Part shown: positions 2,327 through 9,629 of the stretch, one piece after another
Numbering within the stretch: the first letter of the stretch is position 1
Layout of the letters: every line of letters starts with the position of its first letter
Virus record (IMG/VR): IMGVR_UViG_2690316233_000003
Direction: 5' to 3' (one strand)
Source: a virus
Lineage: Duplodnaviria; Heunggongvirae; Uroviricota; Caudoviricetes
Length of the DNA stretch: 10,933 nt
Position numbers and translations under genes: made by a program
The notes under the pieces: model-generated
The model's input: the letters and a program-made list of their open reading frames with translations, nothing else
What the model was told of the DNA's origin: nothing
The model's database searches: none

Positions 2327-3703
2327 TCATACGTCCGCCCCTTGTGCATATCGTCTGCCACGCGCAGCAGGTGCATTTGATGCTGTGCAAATCTGTCTGG
2401 CTTCATCCTGGTCACATGCAACAAAGTGTCCGTTACAGAACCGCTGGTAAACCGTACCAAGTGAGCCAAAACGGTTTTTCGTCACGATGATTTCAGCAAA
2501 TGGCGCGGCGCTACTGTTCTCGTCATATACCGCTTCCCGATAGAGCATGATGATTGAGTCTGCGTCCTGCTCAATGCTTCCTGAATCACGCAAATCTGCG
2601 TTTGTCGGGCGTTTGTTTGGTCGCTTCTCAACATCGCGCGAAAGCTGACTCAGGGAGATAACAGGCGTTTTCAGGTCTTTCGCCATCGCCTTCAGGCTTC
2701 CGGAGATGTGAGCAATTGCAAGGTCGTTGCGGTCTGCTTTCGGCTTCTCAATCAGGCCAAGATAATCCGCCATGATGAGTGACAGGTTTGGATTTTCCTG
2801 TTTGTGCCGTTCTGCGATTGAGCGTATTTCTTCGACCGATAACCGCGAGGCATCGACTACCCATACATCCAAATCCGCAAGCTGACTCATGCCGTTAGCA
2901 ACACGTGCCCAGCCCTCATCATCCATCGATGCAGGATTTCGCAGCACGCTAACCGACATCCTCCCGGCGTTGGCAATGCTTCGCTCTGCAATCTGCAATG
3001 CGCTCATTTCCATCGAGAAAATCAACACTCCGCGCCTGACGTCAGAACCAGGAATAACGCGGCTTGCAACGCCTTCGGCAATCTTCAGCGCCAGTTCGGT
3101 TTTCCCCATACCAGGACGAGCAGCGATTATCACAAGGTCTTCTGCGTTCATCCCTCCGGTGATGGCATCAAGTTCTTCGATTCCGGTCTTCAGGGTATCT
3201 GACTCTTCTCCGTTCCTCAGACGCCTGTCAAGCGTGTCAGTGTAGTCAGTAATGATTTCCCCTAACCGTACCGGTTTAACCTCGTCACGGGGCTTTCTGA
3301 TGGCTGAGAGACGCTTTACAAGCTCATCCATCGCCTGACTCGATGCGTCGATGGTTCCGCTCTGAATTGGTTCACGCATTTCATCCATGATTTCCAGAAC
3401 CAGACGGCGGTGATAGTTATCCGCGACCATTCCGGCATATCCCTTCAGGTTTGCGGCACTCGGGCAGTTTTTGCTGGTCATCAGGATTGACGTGAAATGC
3501 TCCTCTCCGCACGCCTCGGCAACCATCAGCGCGTCGATTAGGTTTCTGTTTCTCGCCTGCTTACGGATAACTTCGAAGGCTTTCCTGTAGAGCGGAATTG
3601 AAAACGCTTCCGGCTCAAGCGTTGCCAGAACGTCACTGGCGGTTGGAGTTAATCCACCAATCAGCAGGCCACCGATAACACTCGCTTCGATATCCTGTCT
3701 CAT
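2327..3703 (-). CDS. replicative DNA helicase, DnaB family (phage-encoded, P22 gene 12-type)
   Basis: 458-aa ORF with a Walker A P-loop ([15 protein letters not shown]) and DnaB-like N-terminal region. Its ATG (3703-3701) overlaps the stop of the O-like gene (ATGA). Confidence 0.9.
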
Positions 3704-4647
3704 GCAATCCCCCTGTCTGCAAACTTCCCTTCCCGAACTCCCGTTAACGAATCTTCTCTCAGCAAGTAATCAAAATCAGCCGTCCAGCCAGTGTCGTTGT
3801 CTCCGAAGTAAAACGGCTTGGCCTGATGCACAAACGCCCTGACATACGCTCTGAAACCGTCCACGTTTGGCGTTTTCAGTTGCGGGATGATTTTCTTCAG
3901 GCGGCGTTTGCGTTTCTCGTTGACCGCAACAGCGTGTGGCAGTCTGTCACCGACTTCGGTGTTGTAGGCGTTCAGGAAGGATTCGTAGTCGATTCGTTCT
4001 GCCTTGCGACGTTCAGGTTTAACCTGCTCATCGCCTCCCCCATTGGGGGGTAGGGGGGTATTATTTATATTCTTGTTAATACCTTCTTGTTCATGATGTG
4101 CGGTTGTTTGTGCGGCTTCATGTGCGCTTTCATGTGCGGCATGTACGCTGAAAGCCGCGCCATTACTGGCTTCATCATGTGCGGCATCATGTGCGGTTGT
4201 TTGTGCGGCTTCATGTGCGGGTGAATTGTCCATTTTTTGAGCATATTCATGGTAATTTGTGATGGTGATCACACGACCTTTTTGCTTCTCTCCATCAATG
4301 GTGATCATCCCCTCTTTCACAAAAACCTGAAGCATCCGCTCAACCTGATCACGGCTTGCTGGCTTGCCATGTCTGTCGCATAACTGAAGACCTAAATCAG
4401 CTGCTGTCACAACCAGTTGACCGGGTTGCAGATGCCATTCATGACCTTTGAAGTTCGCTTTGTATGGCTTTCTGGCGGCATTCAGGAGAAGGTTTTCCCA
4501 CAGGGTGCGAAGATAAACATCTTTCGCCCATGACTGTTTCAGAATGCTCCGGTACAACGGAATGTAACCAGTTTTCTGGTTCTCCATCCTGTTGCTCCTG
4601 CGCTCGTGTGCGGCGCTGAAATCGTAGATTTTTGCTGTATTGCTCAT
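3700..4647 (-). CDS. replication initiator, lambda O-like N-terminus; origin iterons lie inside the gene
   Basis: 315-aa ORF. N-terminus [10 protein letters not shown] resembles lambda O (MTNTAKILNF). A central low-complexity repeat (HEAAQTTAH / HDAAHDEA) is encoded by the DNA iterons. Directly followed by the helicase gene. An alternative internal start at Met21 (4587) has a better SD (AGGAG). Confidence 0.85.
4036..4225. repeat. ori-like iteron array: two clusters of four 12-bp-spaced TGTGCGG cores, an AT-rich tract and a G/C near-palindrome
   Basis: TGTGCGG (or a one-base variant) starts at 4097, 4109, 4121, 4133 and at 4178, 4190, 4202, 4214. A block of about 31 bp is duplicated (about 4096-4127 and 4188-4219). 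AT-rich segment about 4058-4090; CCCCCATTGGGGGGTAGGGGGG at about 4036-4060. This architecture parallels the lambda origin inside O. Confidence 0.7.
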
Positions 4648-4649
4648 AA

Positions 4650-4922
4650 CTACCTGCCTTGACGAAAGACCTTAAGAACATCGTTAAACTGACTTACGGA
4701 TATGTCTTCTTTGAGCAGCTTTTCCAGAAATGCGTTTGGAATGAACGTATATCCCTCCTCTTTTGGTAGAGACGGGAGCAACGCCCTCGCCTCAGCCTTC
4801 AGAAGCTCAGTTCTGGCAACTTTCACAAAAGAGATTTGAGTTCTTTCATCAATGGAACGAAGGAAGCGCAAACGCTTAGCTTCTTTGTGTGTATCAGGTG
4901 GATTAAAGCCTTTGTTTCGCAT
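4650..4922 (-). CDS. hypothetical basic protein (90 aa) between cII and the O-like gene
   Basis: ATG 4922-4920 with GAGGT upstream; stop 3 nt before the O-like ATG. The 194-aa track ORF 4650-5234 is this gene plus a spurious read-through in a cII-overlapping frame. Translation MRNKGFNPPDTHKEAKRLRFLRSIDERTQISFVKVARTELLKAEARALLPSLPKEEGYTFIPNAFLEKLLKEDISVSQFNDVLKVFRQGR. Confidence 0.6.
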   Translation of the reverse strand: MRNKGFNPPDTHKEAKRLRFLRSIDERTQISFVKVARTELLKAEARALLPSLPKEEGYTFIPNAFLEKLLKEDISVSQFNDVLKVFRQGR

Positions 4923-4944: not shown

Positions 4945-5241
4945 TTAAAATTCCATTTGTATTTGATCAGAACGCTCGGTCTTGCACACCGGGCGTTTTT
5001 TATTGGTGAGAATCGAAGCAACTTGTCGTGCCAATCGAGCCATGTCGTCGTCGACGACACCCCATTCAAGAACAGCAAGCAGCATTGAGAACTTTGGAAT
5101 CCAGTCCCTCTTCCACCTGCTGATCTGCGACTTATCAACTCCCACAGCTTCCGCTGTCTTCTCAGTTCCAAGCATTGCGATTTTGTTAAGCAACGCACTC
5201 TCGATTCGTAGAGCCTCGTTGCGTTTGTTTGCACGAACCAT
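4945..5241 (-). CDS. cII: transcriptional activator CII (lambda-type)
   Basis: Translation MVRANKRNEALRIESALLNKIAMLGTEKTAEAVGVDKSQISRWKRDWIPKFSMLLAVLEWGVVDDDMARLARQVASILTNKKRPVCKTERSDQIQMEF is near-identical to lambda CII as I recall it. The track ORF starts further upstream; the true start is the ATG at 5241-5239. Confidence 0.95.
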   Translation of the reverse strand: MVRANKRNEALRIESALLNKIAMLGTEKTAEAVGVDKSQISRWKRDWIPKFSMLLAVLEWGVVDDDMARLARQVASILTNKKRPVCKTERSDQIQMEF

Positions 5242-5258
5242 ATGTAAGTATTTCCTTA
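5219..5258 (+). promoter_or_regulatory. pRE-like CII-activated promoter (TTGC-N6-TTGC CII sites overlapping the cII 5' end, antisense to cro)
   Basis: TTGCGTTTGTTTGC at 5219-5232 on the plus strand, followed by TAAGTAT at about 5245-5251. This is the classic lambda pRE arrangement, oriented toward cI. Confidence 0.6.
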
Positions 5259-5320
5259 GATAACAATTGATTGAATGCATGCAAATAAATGCATACACCA
5301 TAGGTGTGGTTTAATTTGAT

Positions 5321-5352
5321 GCCCTTTTTCAGGGCTGGGATGTGTAAGAGCG
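5321..5352 (-). promoter_or_regulatory. nutR (boxA + boxB) N-utilisation site
   Basis: On the minus strand: boxA CGCTCTTAC (plus coordinates 5344-5352) and boxB hairpin GCCCTGAAAAAGGGC (5321-5335), immediately downstream of the cro stop. Confidence 0.8.
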
Positions 5353-5360
5353 GGAATGTC

Positions 5361-5576
5361 TTAAGCGGCTTTGTGTTCCGGCGGGAACACGTCATCAAGA
5401 CTGACTTTTGCGCCTAACTTGTTTAGGCATGCAACAAGAGCGCGGCATGTTTTAAGGTCTGGGAAGCGACGACCAGATTCCCAATGCCCAATAGCTCCCT
5501 GTGTGCATCCAACTGCCTTAGCAAGTGTTGTTTGAGAGATATTCAGTGACTCTCGATATTTTCGTAGGTTGCTCAT
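5361..5576 (-). CDS. cro: Cro-like repressor (HTH_XRE), non-lambda immunity type
   Basis: 71 aa from the ATG at 5576-5574 with GGAGGG upstream. HTH ISQTTLAKAVGCTQGAIGHWESG. First gene of the rightward operon, divergent from cI. The track ORF 5361-5816 over-extends upstream. Confidence 0.85.
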   Translation of the reverse strand: MSNLRKYRESLNISQTTLAKAVGCTQGAIGHWESGRRFPDLKTCRALVACLNKLGAKVSLDDVFPPEHKAA

Positions 5577-5596
5577 ATGCCCTCCATAGTAACCAT

Positions 5597-5687
5597 GAGA
5601 CAATAATACGATATGTACTTTTGGAATGCAAACAAAAAATACATCTTGTGCATGGATGGTTTTAGTACAGAGCGTAATAATAAGGAT
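5597..5687. promoter_or_regulatory. OR region: divergent pR (toward cro) and pRM (toward cI) with operator half-sites AGTAC...GTA(C/A)T
   Basis: Minus-strand pR: -35 TTGCAT (plus 5626-5631), 17-bp spacer, -10 TATTAT (plus 5603-5608). Operator-like 15-mers at 5605-5619 (revcomp AGTACATATCGTATT) and 5664-5678 (AGTACAGAGCGTAAT), related to the OL site AGTACAAATCGTACT. A possible weaker third site lies near 5636-5650. The pRM position was not resolved. Confidence 0.55.
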
Positions 5688-6347
5688 ATGAAAATGAAAT
5701 GGTATGAACTGGCTAGATCCAGAATGAAAGATCTCGGCATAACTCAAGAGAAGTTGGCTGAAGAGCTTGGTATGACGCAGGGTGGAATTGGTCACTGGTT
5801 GCGCGGATCTCGTCATCCATCTCTTGACGAGATTGGTGTGGTGTTTAAATACCTTGGTATTGATAGCGTCTCATTCAACCACGACGGTACATTTTCACCT
5901 GTTGGCGAATACTCATCTATCCCCGTTAAAAAACAATATGAGTACCCTGTTTTTTCTCATGTTCAGGCCGGGATGTTCTCGCCTGAGCTTAGAACCTTTA
6001 CCAAAGGTGATGCGGAGAGATGGGTCAGTACAACCAAAAAAGCCAGTGATTGTGCGTTCTGGCTTGAAGTTGAAGGTAATTCCATGACCGCACCAACAGG
6101 ATCCAAGCCAAGCTTTCCTGACGGGATGTTAATTCTCGTTGACCCTGATCAGGCTGTTGAGCCAGGTGATTTCTGCATAGCCAGACTTGGTGGTGACGAG
6201 TTTACCTTCAAGAAACTGATCAGGGATAGCGGTCAGGTGTTCCTACAACCACTAAACCCGCAATATCCAATGATCCCATGCAATGATAGCTGTTCCGTTG
6301 TAGGGAAAGTTATCGCCAGCCAGTGGCCTGAAGAGACATTTAGTTAA
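5688..6347 (+). CDS. cI: CI-type prophage repressor (HTH N-terminal domain + LexA/S24 self-cleaving C-terminal domain)
   Basis: The C-terminal two-thirds ([38 protein letters not shown]...GNSMTAP...[26 protein letters not shown]...) is near-identical to lambda CI, including the Ala-Gly cleavage site and the Ser/Lys dyad. The N-terminal HTH domain differs from lambda ([23 protein letters not shown]). The start could be 5688 or 5694 (leaderless or weak SD); the track start 5613 is rejected. Confidence 0.9.
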
Positions 6348-6377
6348 CAGCCTCACCACTCTAAAGCACACAACAAT

Positions 6378-6407
6378 AACCCGACCTTAGTGTCGGGTTT
6401 TCTTTTT
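6378..6407 (+). terminator. intrinsic terminator downstream of cI
   Basis: AACCCGAC-cttagt-GTCGGGTT stem-loop followed by TTTTCTTTTT. Confidence 0.6.
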
Positions 6408-6459
6408 CCAAAATATAAACCCATTAAATACAAAGCGTTATAAAAAACCAATTATATTT

Positions 6460-6501
6460 AGAACATTTTGTATTGACTCAATAAAGTACAAATCGTACTA
6501 T
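6460..6501 (+). promoter_or_regulatory. pL-like promoter with OL operators
   Basis: -35 TTGACT (6473-6478), 17-bp spacer, -10 TACTAT (6496-6501). Palindromic operator AGTACAAATCGTACT (6485-6499) lies in the spacer and -10; a second related site at 6460-6474 overlaps the -35. Located upstream of nutL and N. Confidence 0.55.
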
Positions 6502-6541
6502 TTAGCCATCAGCAGGACGCACTAACCACCATGAAGGTGAT

Positions 6542-6571
6542 GCTCTTAAAAATTAAGCCCTGAAGAAGGGC
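6542..6571 (+). promoter_or_regulatory. nutL (boxA + boxB)
   Basis: boxA-like GCTCTTAAA at 6542-6550 and boxB hairpin GCCCTGAAGAAGGGC at 6557-6571, matching lambda nutL as I recall it. Confidence 0.85.
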
Positions 6572-6681
6572 AGCATTCAAAGCAGAAGGCTTTGAGTAGC
6601 GCGAAATGCAGCTGCAAGACAGCAACCGTGGAGATAAGCATCACGGCGCGTTACTCAAAGCTAACTGACAGGAGAATGACC

Positions 6682-6813
6682 ATGAATAACGAAGCGCTTA
6701 AAGAAATGATTGCGAAACTCCTTGAGGACGCACGCCGAATTCAAGAAGTGGAGCCAAACGCAGGGACACAATCACGTATTGATGAAGCGATGAAGTTGCT
6801 CAAAGGAGAATAA
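6682..6813 (+). CDS. small ORF (43 aa; 45 aa if started at 6676) in the N leader, abutting the N start
   Basis: ACAGGAGAAT SD at about 6669-6675 followed by in-frame ATGs at 6676 and 6682. Translation MNNEALKEMIAKLLEDARRIQEVEPNAGTQSRIDEAMKLLKGE. Stop TAA 6811-6813 is 1 nt before the N ATG. The longer track ORF 6592-6813 has no SD at its start. Confidence 0.45.
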   Translation: MNNEALKEMIAKLLEDARRIQEVEPNAGTQSRIDEAMKLLKGE

Positions 6814-6814
6814 A

Positions 6815-7141
6815 ATGGATGCACAAACACGCCGCCGCGAACGTCGCGCAGAGAAGCAGACTCAATGGAAAGCAGCAAATCCCCTGTTGGTTGGGGTAAG
6901 CGCAAAACCAGTTAACCGCCCAATTCTCTCGCTGAATCGCAAACCGAAATCACGAGTAGAAAGCGCACTGAATCCGATAGACCTTACGGTGCTGGCTGAA
7001 TACCAAGAACAGATTGAAAGCAACCTGCATCGTATTGAGCGCAAGAATCAGCGCACATGGTACAGCAAGCCACGCAGTGAAATGGGTGTGACTTGTGTTG
7101 GTCGCCAGAAAATTAAATTAGGCAGCAAACCACTTATTTGA
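6815..7141 (+). CDS. N: antitermination protein N (lambda-type)
   Basis: Translation MDAQTRRRERRAEKQTQWKAANPLLVGVSAKPVNRPILSLNRKPKSRVESALNPIDLTVLAEYQEQIESNLHRIERKNQRTWYSKP... carries the arginine-rich boxB-binding motif and is near-identical to lambda N from memory. SD AAGGAG at 6803-6808. Confidence 0.95.
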   Translation: MDAQTRRRERRAEKQTQWKAANPLLVGVSAKPVNRPILSLNRKPKSRVESALNPIDLTVLAEYQEQIESNLHRIERKNQRTWYSKPRSEMGVTCVGRQKIKLGSKPLI

Positions 7142-9023: not shown

Positions 9024-9629
9024 ATGAGCAAAGAATTTTACGCAAGACTGGCAGCTATTCAGGAGAATCTGAACGCGCCAAAGAATCAATACAACTCATT
9101 CGGCAAATATAAATACAGAAGCTGCGAAGACATTCTTGAGGGTGTTAAGCCGTTACTGAATGGCCTGTTTTTATCAATCAGCGATGAAGTTGTGTTGATT
9201 GGTGATCGGTATTACGTGAAAGCCACGGCAACTATTACCGATGGCGAAAACAGTCATACGGCAACCGCTCTTGCACGAGAGGAAGAAAGCAAGAAAGGAA
9301 TGGATTCTGCACAAGTTACGGGAGCCACAAGCTCTTATGCACGCAAGTACTGCCTCAATGGTTTGTTCGGCATTGATGATGCGAAAGATGCAGATACCGA
9401 CGAGCATAAACATCAGCAGAACGCAGCAGCAAAGCAATCAAAACCATCACCTACACCTGAACAGGTTCTAAAAGCATTCACTGACGCAGCATTGCAGAAA
9501 AACACCGTAGAAGAGCTTAAACAGGCGTTCGCCAAAGCGTGGAAGATGCTCGAAGGCACACCTGAGCAGCACAAAGCGCAGGACGTTTACAACATCAGAC
9601 GAGACGAATTAGAAGGAGCGGCTGCTTAA
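9024..9629 (+). CDS. erf: Erf (essential recombination function, single-strand annealing protein)
   Basis: Translation MSKEFYARLAAIQENLNAPKNQYNSFGKYKYRSCEDILEGVKPLLNGLFLSISDEVVLIGDRYYVKATATITDGENSH... matches my recollection of P22 Erf. The track start 8994 is a TTG; the ATG at 9024 is preferred. Confidence 0.8.
   Translation: MSKEFYARLAAIQENLNAPKNQYNSFGKYKYRSCEDILEGVKPLLNGLFLSISDEVVLIGDRYYVKATATITDGENSHTATALAREEESKKGMDSAQVTGATSSYARKYCLNGLFGIDDAKDADTDEHKHQQNAAAKQSKPSPTPEQVLKAFTDAALQKNTVEELKQAFAKAWKMLEGTPEQHKAQDVYNIRRDELEGAAA

Follow-up and report, generated by a model that had tools for sequence, protein, structure and literature searches.

Which immunity does a lambdoid phage have when only one end of its repressor resembles that of lambda? 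The question is raised by positions 5361-6347 of a 10,933-nt stretch of a Caudoviricetes virus (IMG/VR record IMGVR_UViG_2690316233_000003; the whole stretch is called the window below), in which the repressor gene cI and the gene cro lie divergently on either side of a short control region. An original prediction, made from the letters and open reading frames (ORFs) alone, held that this is a heterologous immunity module in which CI and Cro read the same operators. We conclude, with a probability of about 0.9, that the region is the immunity (lysis-lysogeny) switch of a lambdoid/P22-like prophage, of the type found in VT2-Sakai (Sp5), Morioka Stx1 and Stx2-II, Nil2, 2851 and 1717. The earlier interpretation is supported, and the finding is already known.

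The region has the features of a lambdoid switch: cI and cro diverge around a multipartite operator lying over the promoters pR and pRM, a second operator cluster lies on the promoter pL upstream of nutL and N, and the repressor has both a helix-turn-helix (HTH) and an S24 peptidase domain. BLAST searches with the CI N-terminal domain and Cro had been proposed as a means of naming the immunity type. Sequence comparison gives VT2-Sakai (Sp5), and every sequence-level feature of that type that we tested (Cro, the DNA-reading surface of CI, the operator set) was found in the window. The VT2-Sakai Cro (BAA94123, translated from AP000422) is identical to the window Cro at 71 of 71 residues. The VT2-Sakai CI is equal in length to the window CI and has the same lambda-type C-terminal domain; its helix 2-turn-helix 3 (28 residues) is identical, and its N-terminal part is 93% identical at the nucleotide level, its few amino acid changes being outside the HTH. 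All six VT2-Sakai operators have window orthologs at orthologous positions, and the arrangement of pR, pRM and pL is the same. The two are nevertheless distinct alleles: VT2-Sakai-type DNA is ~8% diverged from the window, its right operators OR1 and OR2 are 32 rather than 33 bp apart, and it has two extra ORFs between cI and the left operator (OL) where the window has none. The flanks differ as well, the N and cII of VT2-Sakai being annotated as similar to 933W/H-19B N and 933W/HK022 CII, respectively, whereas N, cII, nutL and nutR of the window are lambda-type.

How common is this type? In a megablast search of phage records, five phages (vB_EcoP-720R6, Louie, Dewey, vB_EcoP-683R2 and phi458) cover positions 5250-6560 at ~98%, and a large group covers, at 92.4%, exactly the span bounded by the stop codons of cro and cI (5361-6347); among its members are the Morioka Stx1 and Stx2-II phages, Nil2, 2851 and the PA-series Stx2a phages. 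The cro-cI block is also 92.4% identical to VT2-Sakai, and tblastn, queried with the N-terminal domain of CI, brings in VT2-Sakai together with phage 1717, at 92.8%. Of 5426 complete E. coli genomes, 786 (about one in seven) carry the block of 582 bp that determines specificity (5355-5936). The module is ordinary, since its repressor, Cro and operators are annotated as a set in VT2-Sakai and are carried by this share of E. coli genomes; it is already known and common, not new, and the window, as another copy of a common annotated type, adds little. Its value is modest, as a clean textbook case of modular phage evolution. The type itself has medical relevance, since induction of the Sakai Stx2 phage is under its control. 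Compared with these known phages the block is collinear and there is no junction inside cI, formally the outcome that the original prediction had named as telling against it; the mosaicism relative to lambda remains.

One other identity was considered and rejected. The repressor of the O104:H4-type Stx2 phage BAA2326 has been footprinted and, like the window CI, is ~61% identical overall to lambda CI. Its OR sites (ATAACTGTGCGTAATG and others) differ, however, and to the left of its cI lies a restriction-modification system with no recognisable OL or N. Furthermore, the CI proteins of the PST1 (Sakai) and PST2 (O104-like) groups are at most 49.8% identical (Yin et al. 2015, PMC4587872).

CI is a two-domain protein whose HTH_3 N-terminal domain is specific to the VT2-Sakai immunity type; the Pfam matches are to HTH_3 (E value 2.8e-10) and Peptidase_S24 (E value 1.8e-28), and HTH_3 is matched by Cro as well. 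The near-identity of the second HTH helix in the two proteins, on which the original prediction was built, is there in both translations, the recognition helices reading TQGGIGHW (CI) and TQGAIGHW (Cro). BLASTP aligns CI and Cro at 35% identity over 62 residues (E value 6e-11), and counts on this alignment place the identity mainly in the HTH: 9 of 13 residues in the 13-residue motif and 7 of 8 in TQGxIGHW, against ~17% in the rest of the domain. When CI is aligned with the lambda repressor (3bdn), the motif falls on helix 3 (QSGVGALFN), the acidic residues E19 and E23 fall on E34 and D38 of helix 2, and the cleavage and catalytic residues A92-G93, S130 and K173 are kept (AG, S149 and K192 in lambda). 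Comparison with the PDB also gave weak sequence matches to the 434 and P22 C2 structures.

The 434 repressor and 434 Cro are an all-alpha HTH_3 pair in which both recognition helices begin with QQSI and both proteins use the same pseudo-palindromic operators. The window pair resembles them in being all-alpha HTH_3 proteins whose recognition helices begin with the same residues and which are predicted to read the same operators. It differs in the helix itself (TQGxIGHW), in its operators (17 bp, AAGTAC-N5-GTACTT, against 14 bp, ACAA-N6-TTGT) and in a C-terminal domain that is lambda-like, not 434-like.

The 111-bp control region between cI and cro contains three 17-bp pseudo-palindromes, and a second trio lies on pL ~820 bp away. 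The site consensus is AAGTAC-N5-GTACTT, of which A5, C6, G12 and T13 are invariant (12 of 12 Sakai half-sites). Three sites of the AGTAC type had been claimed, one in the pL spacer and two between cro and cI, and they are exactly where they were said to be: a search with AGTACNNNNNGTACT at no more than one mismatch matched 5605-5619, 5664-5678 and 6485-6499 (0.12 matches expected; none of 200 shuffles reached three). These three are the most symmetric of the sites; OR2, OL2 and OL3 had escaped notice, so that there are six sites in all. Relaxing the search to two mismatches gave five matches against 2.0 expected, which is not significant alone. A symmetric weight matrix was then built from the six annotated VT2-Sakai sites only and the window was scanned with it. 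The six orthologous window sites rank 1-5 and 7 among ~10,900 positions, and five window sites score at least 12 bits where shuffles give 0.245. With arms of only 5-6 nt, and imperfect ones, the operators escaped a generic inverted-repeat finder (6-nt seed), and pattern and matrix searches were needed to find them. Between window and Sakai, one or two bases differ per site, at the outermost position, in the central five bases or at a variable half-site position (OL3), and the invariant AC...GT is kept. Two further candidates were rejected, a matrix match at 4948-4964 (the end of cII), which is at chance level and away from promoters, and a half-site-only match at 6443-6459, which lacks the invariant GT.

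The promoters pR and pL come from a consensus scan and overlap OR1, OL1 and OL2. The predicted pR is the counterpart of the 'putative major rightward promoter' of AP000422, and the position of pRM was transferred from the 'maintenance promoter for cI' annotated there. AP000422 (VT2-Sakai) annotates three OR and three OL putative operators along with pR, pRM and pL, and AP005153 (an Stx1 phage) has the same OR sites. The same six operator sequences are listed for PST1/Sakai phages (PST1 including PA4) in Table S5 of Yin et al. 2015 (PMC4587872), a paper that credits them to Fattah et al. 2000. In that table (Additional file 6) the OR and OL labels appear to have changed places when compared with the GenBank record of VT2-Sakai: its 'OR1-3', as reverse complements, are the sites that the record puts near pL, and its 'OL1-3' match the cro-cI sites. 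On our reading, binding of CI and Cro to all six sites is predicted.

Is the specificity confined to the Sakai type? The window module, VT2-Sakai and the Salmonella phages L and ST64T might instead form one cross-reacting immunity group, which we think rather unlikely but deserving of real weight. In ST64T (phage L type; host Salmonella) the DNA is ~64-65% identical to the window over cro-OR-cI(N-terminal), yet the recognition helices are TQGAIGHW in the repressor C2 and TQGAIGHY in Cro, and the operator core is the same. With the Sakai matrix its operators (e.g. TAATACATTTCGTACTA, AAGTACATTTTGTATTG) reach 18-19.5 bits; there are six strong matches, located at 1416-1492 and 2228-2299 in a window-like layout, the distances between centres being 34 and 26 bp in OR and 30 and 25 bp in OL. 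Weighing against a single group, the N-terminal domains are only ~54% identical and Cro 69%, and specificity can be altered by the N-terminal arm, by DNA shape that depends on the spacer and by residues elsewhere than in helix 3, as is established for 434 versus P22. The literature searched gave no cross-immunity data for ST64T/L versus the Sakai type. As an observation apart, the likeness raises the possibility that E. coli phages of Sakai type and Salmonella phages of L type may overlap in immunity.

The C-terminal domain of ST64T C2 is 434-like where that of the window CI is lambda-like, and the unit of N-terminal domain, Cro and operators thus recombines with different C-terminal domains at the linker. 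In the Salmonella phage SPN9CC both helices have changed together, to TKGAVSHW in CI and TRGAVCHY in Cro. The conservation in ST64T and the parallel change in SPN9CC both fit a constraint placed on CI and Cro by shared sites. At 1418-1493 of SPN9CC, weaker matrix matches hint, with low confidence, at the opposite OR spacing, 24 then 35 bp.

Several points weigh against the main reading. OR2 is weak, and ~0.9 random positions per shuffled window reach its 10.9 bits. The pRM promoter scores below the threshold of the promoter scan, and cI may start at 5694 or at an alternative in-frame ATG, 5688; with pRM starting at ~5688, the cI mRNA would be leaderless or nearly so. Operator and promoter assignments in public records are all labelled 'putative', and the literature searched gave no binding, footprint or immunity experiment for the Sakai immunity type. 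Its operators appear, in that literature, never to have been footprinted, and the six-site map and its geometry could guide such work. The OR1-OR2 spacing, discussed below, belongs here too.

Could the palindromes then be chance or promoter-linked AT-rich sequence, the true operators being other sequences in the same intergenic regions? The weakness of OR2 speaks for this, as does the BAA2326 repressor, whose footprinted sites are weakly symmetric and unpredictable by eye. We nevertheless consider it very improbable: none of the 200 shuffles reaches the observed count, all six sites lie on promoters, and the AC...GT that is invariant among the Sakai half-sites is kept in ST64T despite ~35% divergence of the surrounding DNA.

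Where, then, does the non-lambda part begin and end? The window was compared with lambda (34500-40500) by blastn and ungapped print-outs. As predicted, the CI C-terminal domain, cII, nutR, nutL and N are lambda-type, in stretches of 91.4-97.7% identity (Table 1). From codon 82 to its end, CI is 97% identical to lambda CI at the amino acid level, a part that covers the linker, the A92-G93 cleavage site and the S130/K173 dyad. No nucleotide similarity to lambda was found in 5355-5936, and the only similarity in 6342-6506 is a weak 36-bp match (6370-6405; 86% identity to the region of the lambda rexB 3' end) that spans the hairpin downstream of cI. There are four junctions, all of which follow functional boundaries. 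That at 5354/5355 lies 6 bp beyond the stop codon of cro, and that at 5936/5937 falls in the linker of CI, ten residues ahead of the Ala-Gly site; the other two, at ~6342 and 6506/6507, correspond to the end of cI and the start of pL. The prediction had put one junction at about 5930-5940 within cI and another between cro and nutR; both are correct to a few bases, and the two that bound the OL/pL block were overlooked. The non-lambda specificity unit is in two pieces, cro-OR-cI(N-terminal) and OL/pL, parted by the lambda-type C-terminal coding segment. Cro, the CI N-terminal domain, OR and OL are thus split and yet inherited together.

Lambda has the same overall logic and gene order, and the cII/pRE region, nut sites and N of the window are of its type. 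Its CI N-terminal domain, however, is only distantly related to that of the window, its Cro belongs to another fold family and its operator sequence is unrelated; it also has rexAB and an OL-OR distance of ~2.4 kb, where the window is without rexAB and has ~0.8 kb. The lambda operator consensus (TATCACCGC...GGTGATA) at up to three mismatches has no match in 5300-6600, and its single match in the window, at 9233, is at chance level. Lambda specificity was accordingly ruled out: there are no lambda operators, the CI N-terminal domain and Cro are non-lambda, and Cro is of the HTH_3 type.

When did cI become chimeric? The gene is 654 nt long and aligns without gaps in the window, 720R6, Sakai, 2B8 and SPN9CC. 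That it arose by recent recombination in this phage, between a parent of lambda immunity and a heteroimmune donor, is barely credible even though identity to lambda falls sharply from >94% to none at 5354/5355 and 5936/5937, because the same chimera, junction and gene length occur in alleles 7-8% diverged (VT2-Sakai, 2B8), window and Sakai differ equally in the N-terminal (93.0% nucleotide identity) and C-terminal (91.7%) parts, the C-terminal part is no closer to lambda (93.7% for the window, 92.7% for Sakai) than expected for an old split, SPN9CC has the same domain combination (58% and 73% nucleotide identity to the N- and C-terminal parts of the window cI), and the block is in 786 genomes. 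The chimeric cI is instead older than the divergence between the window and Sakai alleles, an established allele of a stable gene family and not a recent event in the window phage. Of the predicted swap by recombination, the mosaicism relative to lambda stands, and the word 'swap' carries neither direction nor date, since the sequences do not say which lineage was the recipient. Seen from the cI family of SPN9CC and the window, it is lambda that has the odd N-terminal domain.

How would the Sakai-type switch work? By analogy with lambda and 434, CI dimers at OL1/OL2 and OR1 would occlude pL and pR, CI at OR2 (centre -43) would activate pRM through the acidic patch of helix 2 (E19, E23), and OR3 (centre -17) would shut off pRM at high CI. 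Cro, which has the same base-contacting helix (Q, G and H at helix positions 1, 2 and 6), would read the same six sites with a different order of affinities and turn pRM off in lytic growth. Prophage induction would follow RecA-stimulated self-cleavage at A92-G93 by the S130/K173 dyad. Establishment would go through the lambda-type CII/pRE of the left flank, and antitermination would use the lambda-type N with the lambda-type nutL and nutR.

The geometry next to the promoters is lambda-like, since the operator centres are at nearly equal positions: OR1 -16 (from pR), OR2 -43 and OR3 -17 (from pRM), OL1 -16 and OL2 -41 (from pL) in the window, and -17, -42, -19, -17 and -41, respectively, when computed from lambda coordinates. 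The spacing between operators is another matter. Centre to centre, OR1-OR2 is 33 bp and OR2-OR3 26 bp, OL2-OL3 33 bp and OL1-OL2 25 bp (the wide spacings in Sakai are 32 bp for OR1-OR2 and 33 bp for OL2-OL3), whereas OR1-OR2 in lambda is 24 bp, ~9 bp less. One therefore cannot take for granted that the lambda-type C-terminal domain gives lambda-style cooperativity between OR1 and OR2. A doubtful but specific reading is that the lambda-type cooperativity domain works on a different layout here, OR2 and OR3, the short pair, being filled together and pRM being auto-repressed at low CI; it is conditional on lambda-like pairwise cooperativity needing short spacing. A 'hair-trigger' low-repressor logic has been proposed for Stx phages, and co-filling of OR2 and OR3 with early auto-repression of pRM would be such logic. 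If it is true, the same layout in ST64T with its 434-like C-terminal domain would mean that the layout is set by the module of N-terminal domain, Cro and promoters and not by the cooperativity domain. That the unusual spacing combined with a lambda-type C-terminal domain could alter the logic of cooperativity is speculative, and is the one remaining point of interest.

Table 1. Features of the immunity region and its surroundings, in window coordinates. The plus strand of the window runs opposite to the conventional lambda map.
Feature	Positions	Strand	Remarks
DnaB-like helicase gene	2327-3703	-	ORF listing and family searches
O-type replication gene	3700-4647	-	ORF listing and family searches
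90-residue ORF	4650-4922	-	Function unknown; ORF listing and family searches
cII	4945-5241	-	ORF listing and family searches
Lambda-like stretch: cII, pRE region, nutR	4949-5354		96.3% identity
nutR, lambda-type	5321-5352	-	boxB 5321-5335, boxA 5345-5352; from lambda annotation and alignment
cro	5361-5576	-	71 residues; HTH_3-type by Pfam, not lambda Cro fold family
Cro turn and recognition helix codons	5472-5510	-	G23-G35 (GCTQGAIGHWESG); translation, helix from HTH_3 match and PDB alignments
pR, predicted	5603-5632	-	-35 TTTGCA 5632-5627, 18-bp spacer, -10 TATTAT 5608-5603; start ~5596; consensus scan
OR1, putative	5604-5620		TAATACGATATGTACTT; 18.0 bits; over pR -10 and spacer, centre ~-16 from pR start; orthologous to Sakai putative operator
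OR2, putative	5637-5653		AAATACATCTTGTGCAT; 10.9 bits, weakest; abuts pRM -35, centre ~-43 from predicted pRM start; Sakai ortholog
pRM, predicted	5653-5681	+	-35 TGGATG 5653-5658, 17-bp spacer, -10 AATAAT 5676-5681; start ~5688; read from sequence
OR3, putative	5663-5679		TAGTACAGAGCGTAATA; 14.7 bits; over pRM spacer and -10, centre ~-17; Sakai ortholog
cI	5694-6347	+	217 residues from ATG 5694; HTH_3 N-terminal and Peptidase_S24 C-terminal domains
CI turn and recognition helix codons	5769-5807	+	G26-G38 (13-residue motif); translation; motif identical in VT2-Sakai CI
Lambda-like stretch: cI C-terminal part	5937-6341	+	Lambda residue ~101 to end; 94.3% nucleotide identity
Terminator-like hairpin (intrinsic) 3' of cI	6378-6399	+	Sequence scan
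OL3, putative	6426-6442		AAATACAAAGCGTTATA; 14.4 bits; Sakai ortholog
OL2, putative	6459-6475		TAGAACATTTTGTATTG; 16.1 bits; overlaps start of pL -35, centre -41; Sakai ortholog
pL	6473-6501	+	-35 TTGACT, 17-bp spacer, -10 TACTAT; start 6508, where lambda homology begins; consensus scan
OL1, putative	6484-6500		AAGTACAAATCGTACTA; 20.1 bits, best; in pL spacer and -10, centre -16; Sakai ortholog
Lambda-like stretch: pL +1 to past nutL	6507-6594		97.7% identity
nutL, lambda-type	6541-6571	+	boxA-like TGCTCTTA 6541-6548, boxB 6557-6571; lambda annotation
43-residue ORF	6683-6813	+	Begins MNNEALKEMIAKLL; ORF listing
Lambda-like stretch: N	6804-7116		91.4% identity
N	6815-7141	+	Lambda-type; ORF listing and family searches

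The surroundings of the switch need only brief comment. The junction at 5354/5355 is 3-9 bp from nutR, which belongs to the lambda-like flank. The boxA of nutL reads TGCTCTTA where lambda has CGCTCTTA; this change and one at position 6524 are the two mismatches in the 88-bp lambda-like block from pL to nutL. Between the cI stop and OL3 is a 'moron slot' (6348-6425), which in the window holds only the terminator hairpin, and for this reason the OL-OR distance is so short; elsewhere the slot holds rexA and rexB (lambda), two small ORFs (VT2-Sakai) or a 1047-nt ORF (phi458). The interval between nutL and N includes a ~210-bp segment (6595-6803) missing from lambda, in which the 43-residue ORF sits; this ORF matches phrog_32391, whose function is unknown, over its full length. 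On the other side of the switch, the 90-residue ORF between cII and the O-type gene gives a full-length match to phrog_2519 (function unknown); lambda has no gene at this place.

An Rfam scan of the window gave no matches, stx is absent from the backbone within the window, and when the whole window was searched against complete E. coli genomes and phages no record covered more than 76% of it. Inside the O-type gene, at 4109-4220, 12-bp tandem repeats encode His/Ala-rich protein repeats and give rise to spurious repeat-rich ORFs in the other frames; by analogy with the lambda O gene, they are probably the iterons of the replication origin.

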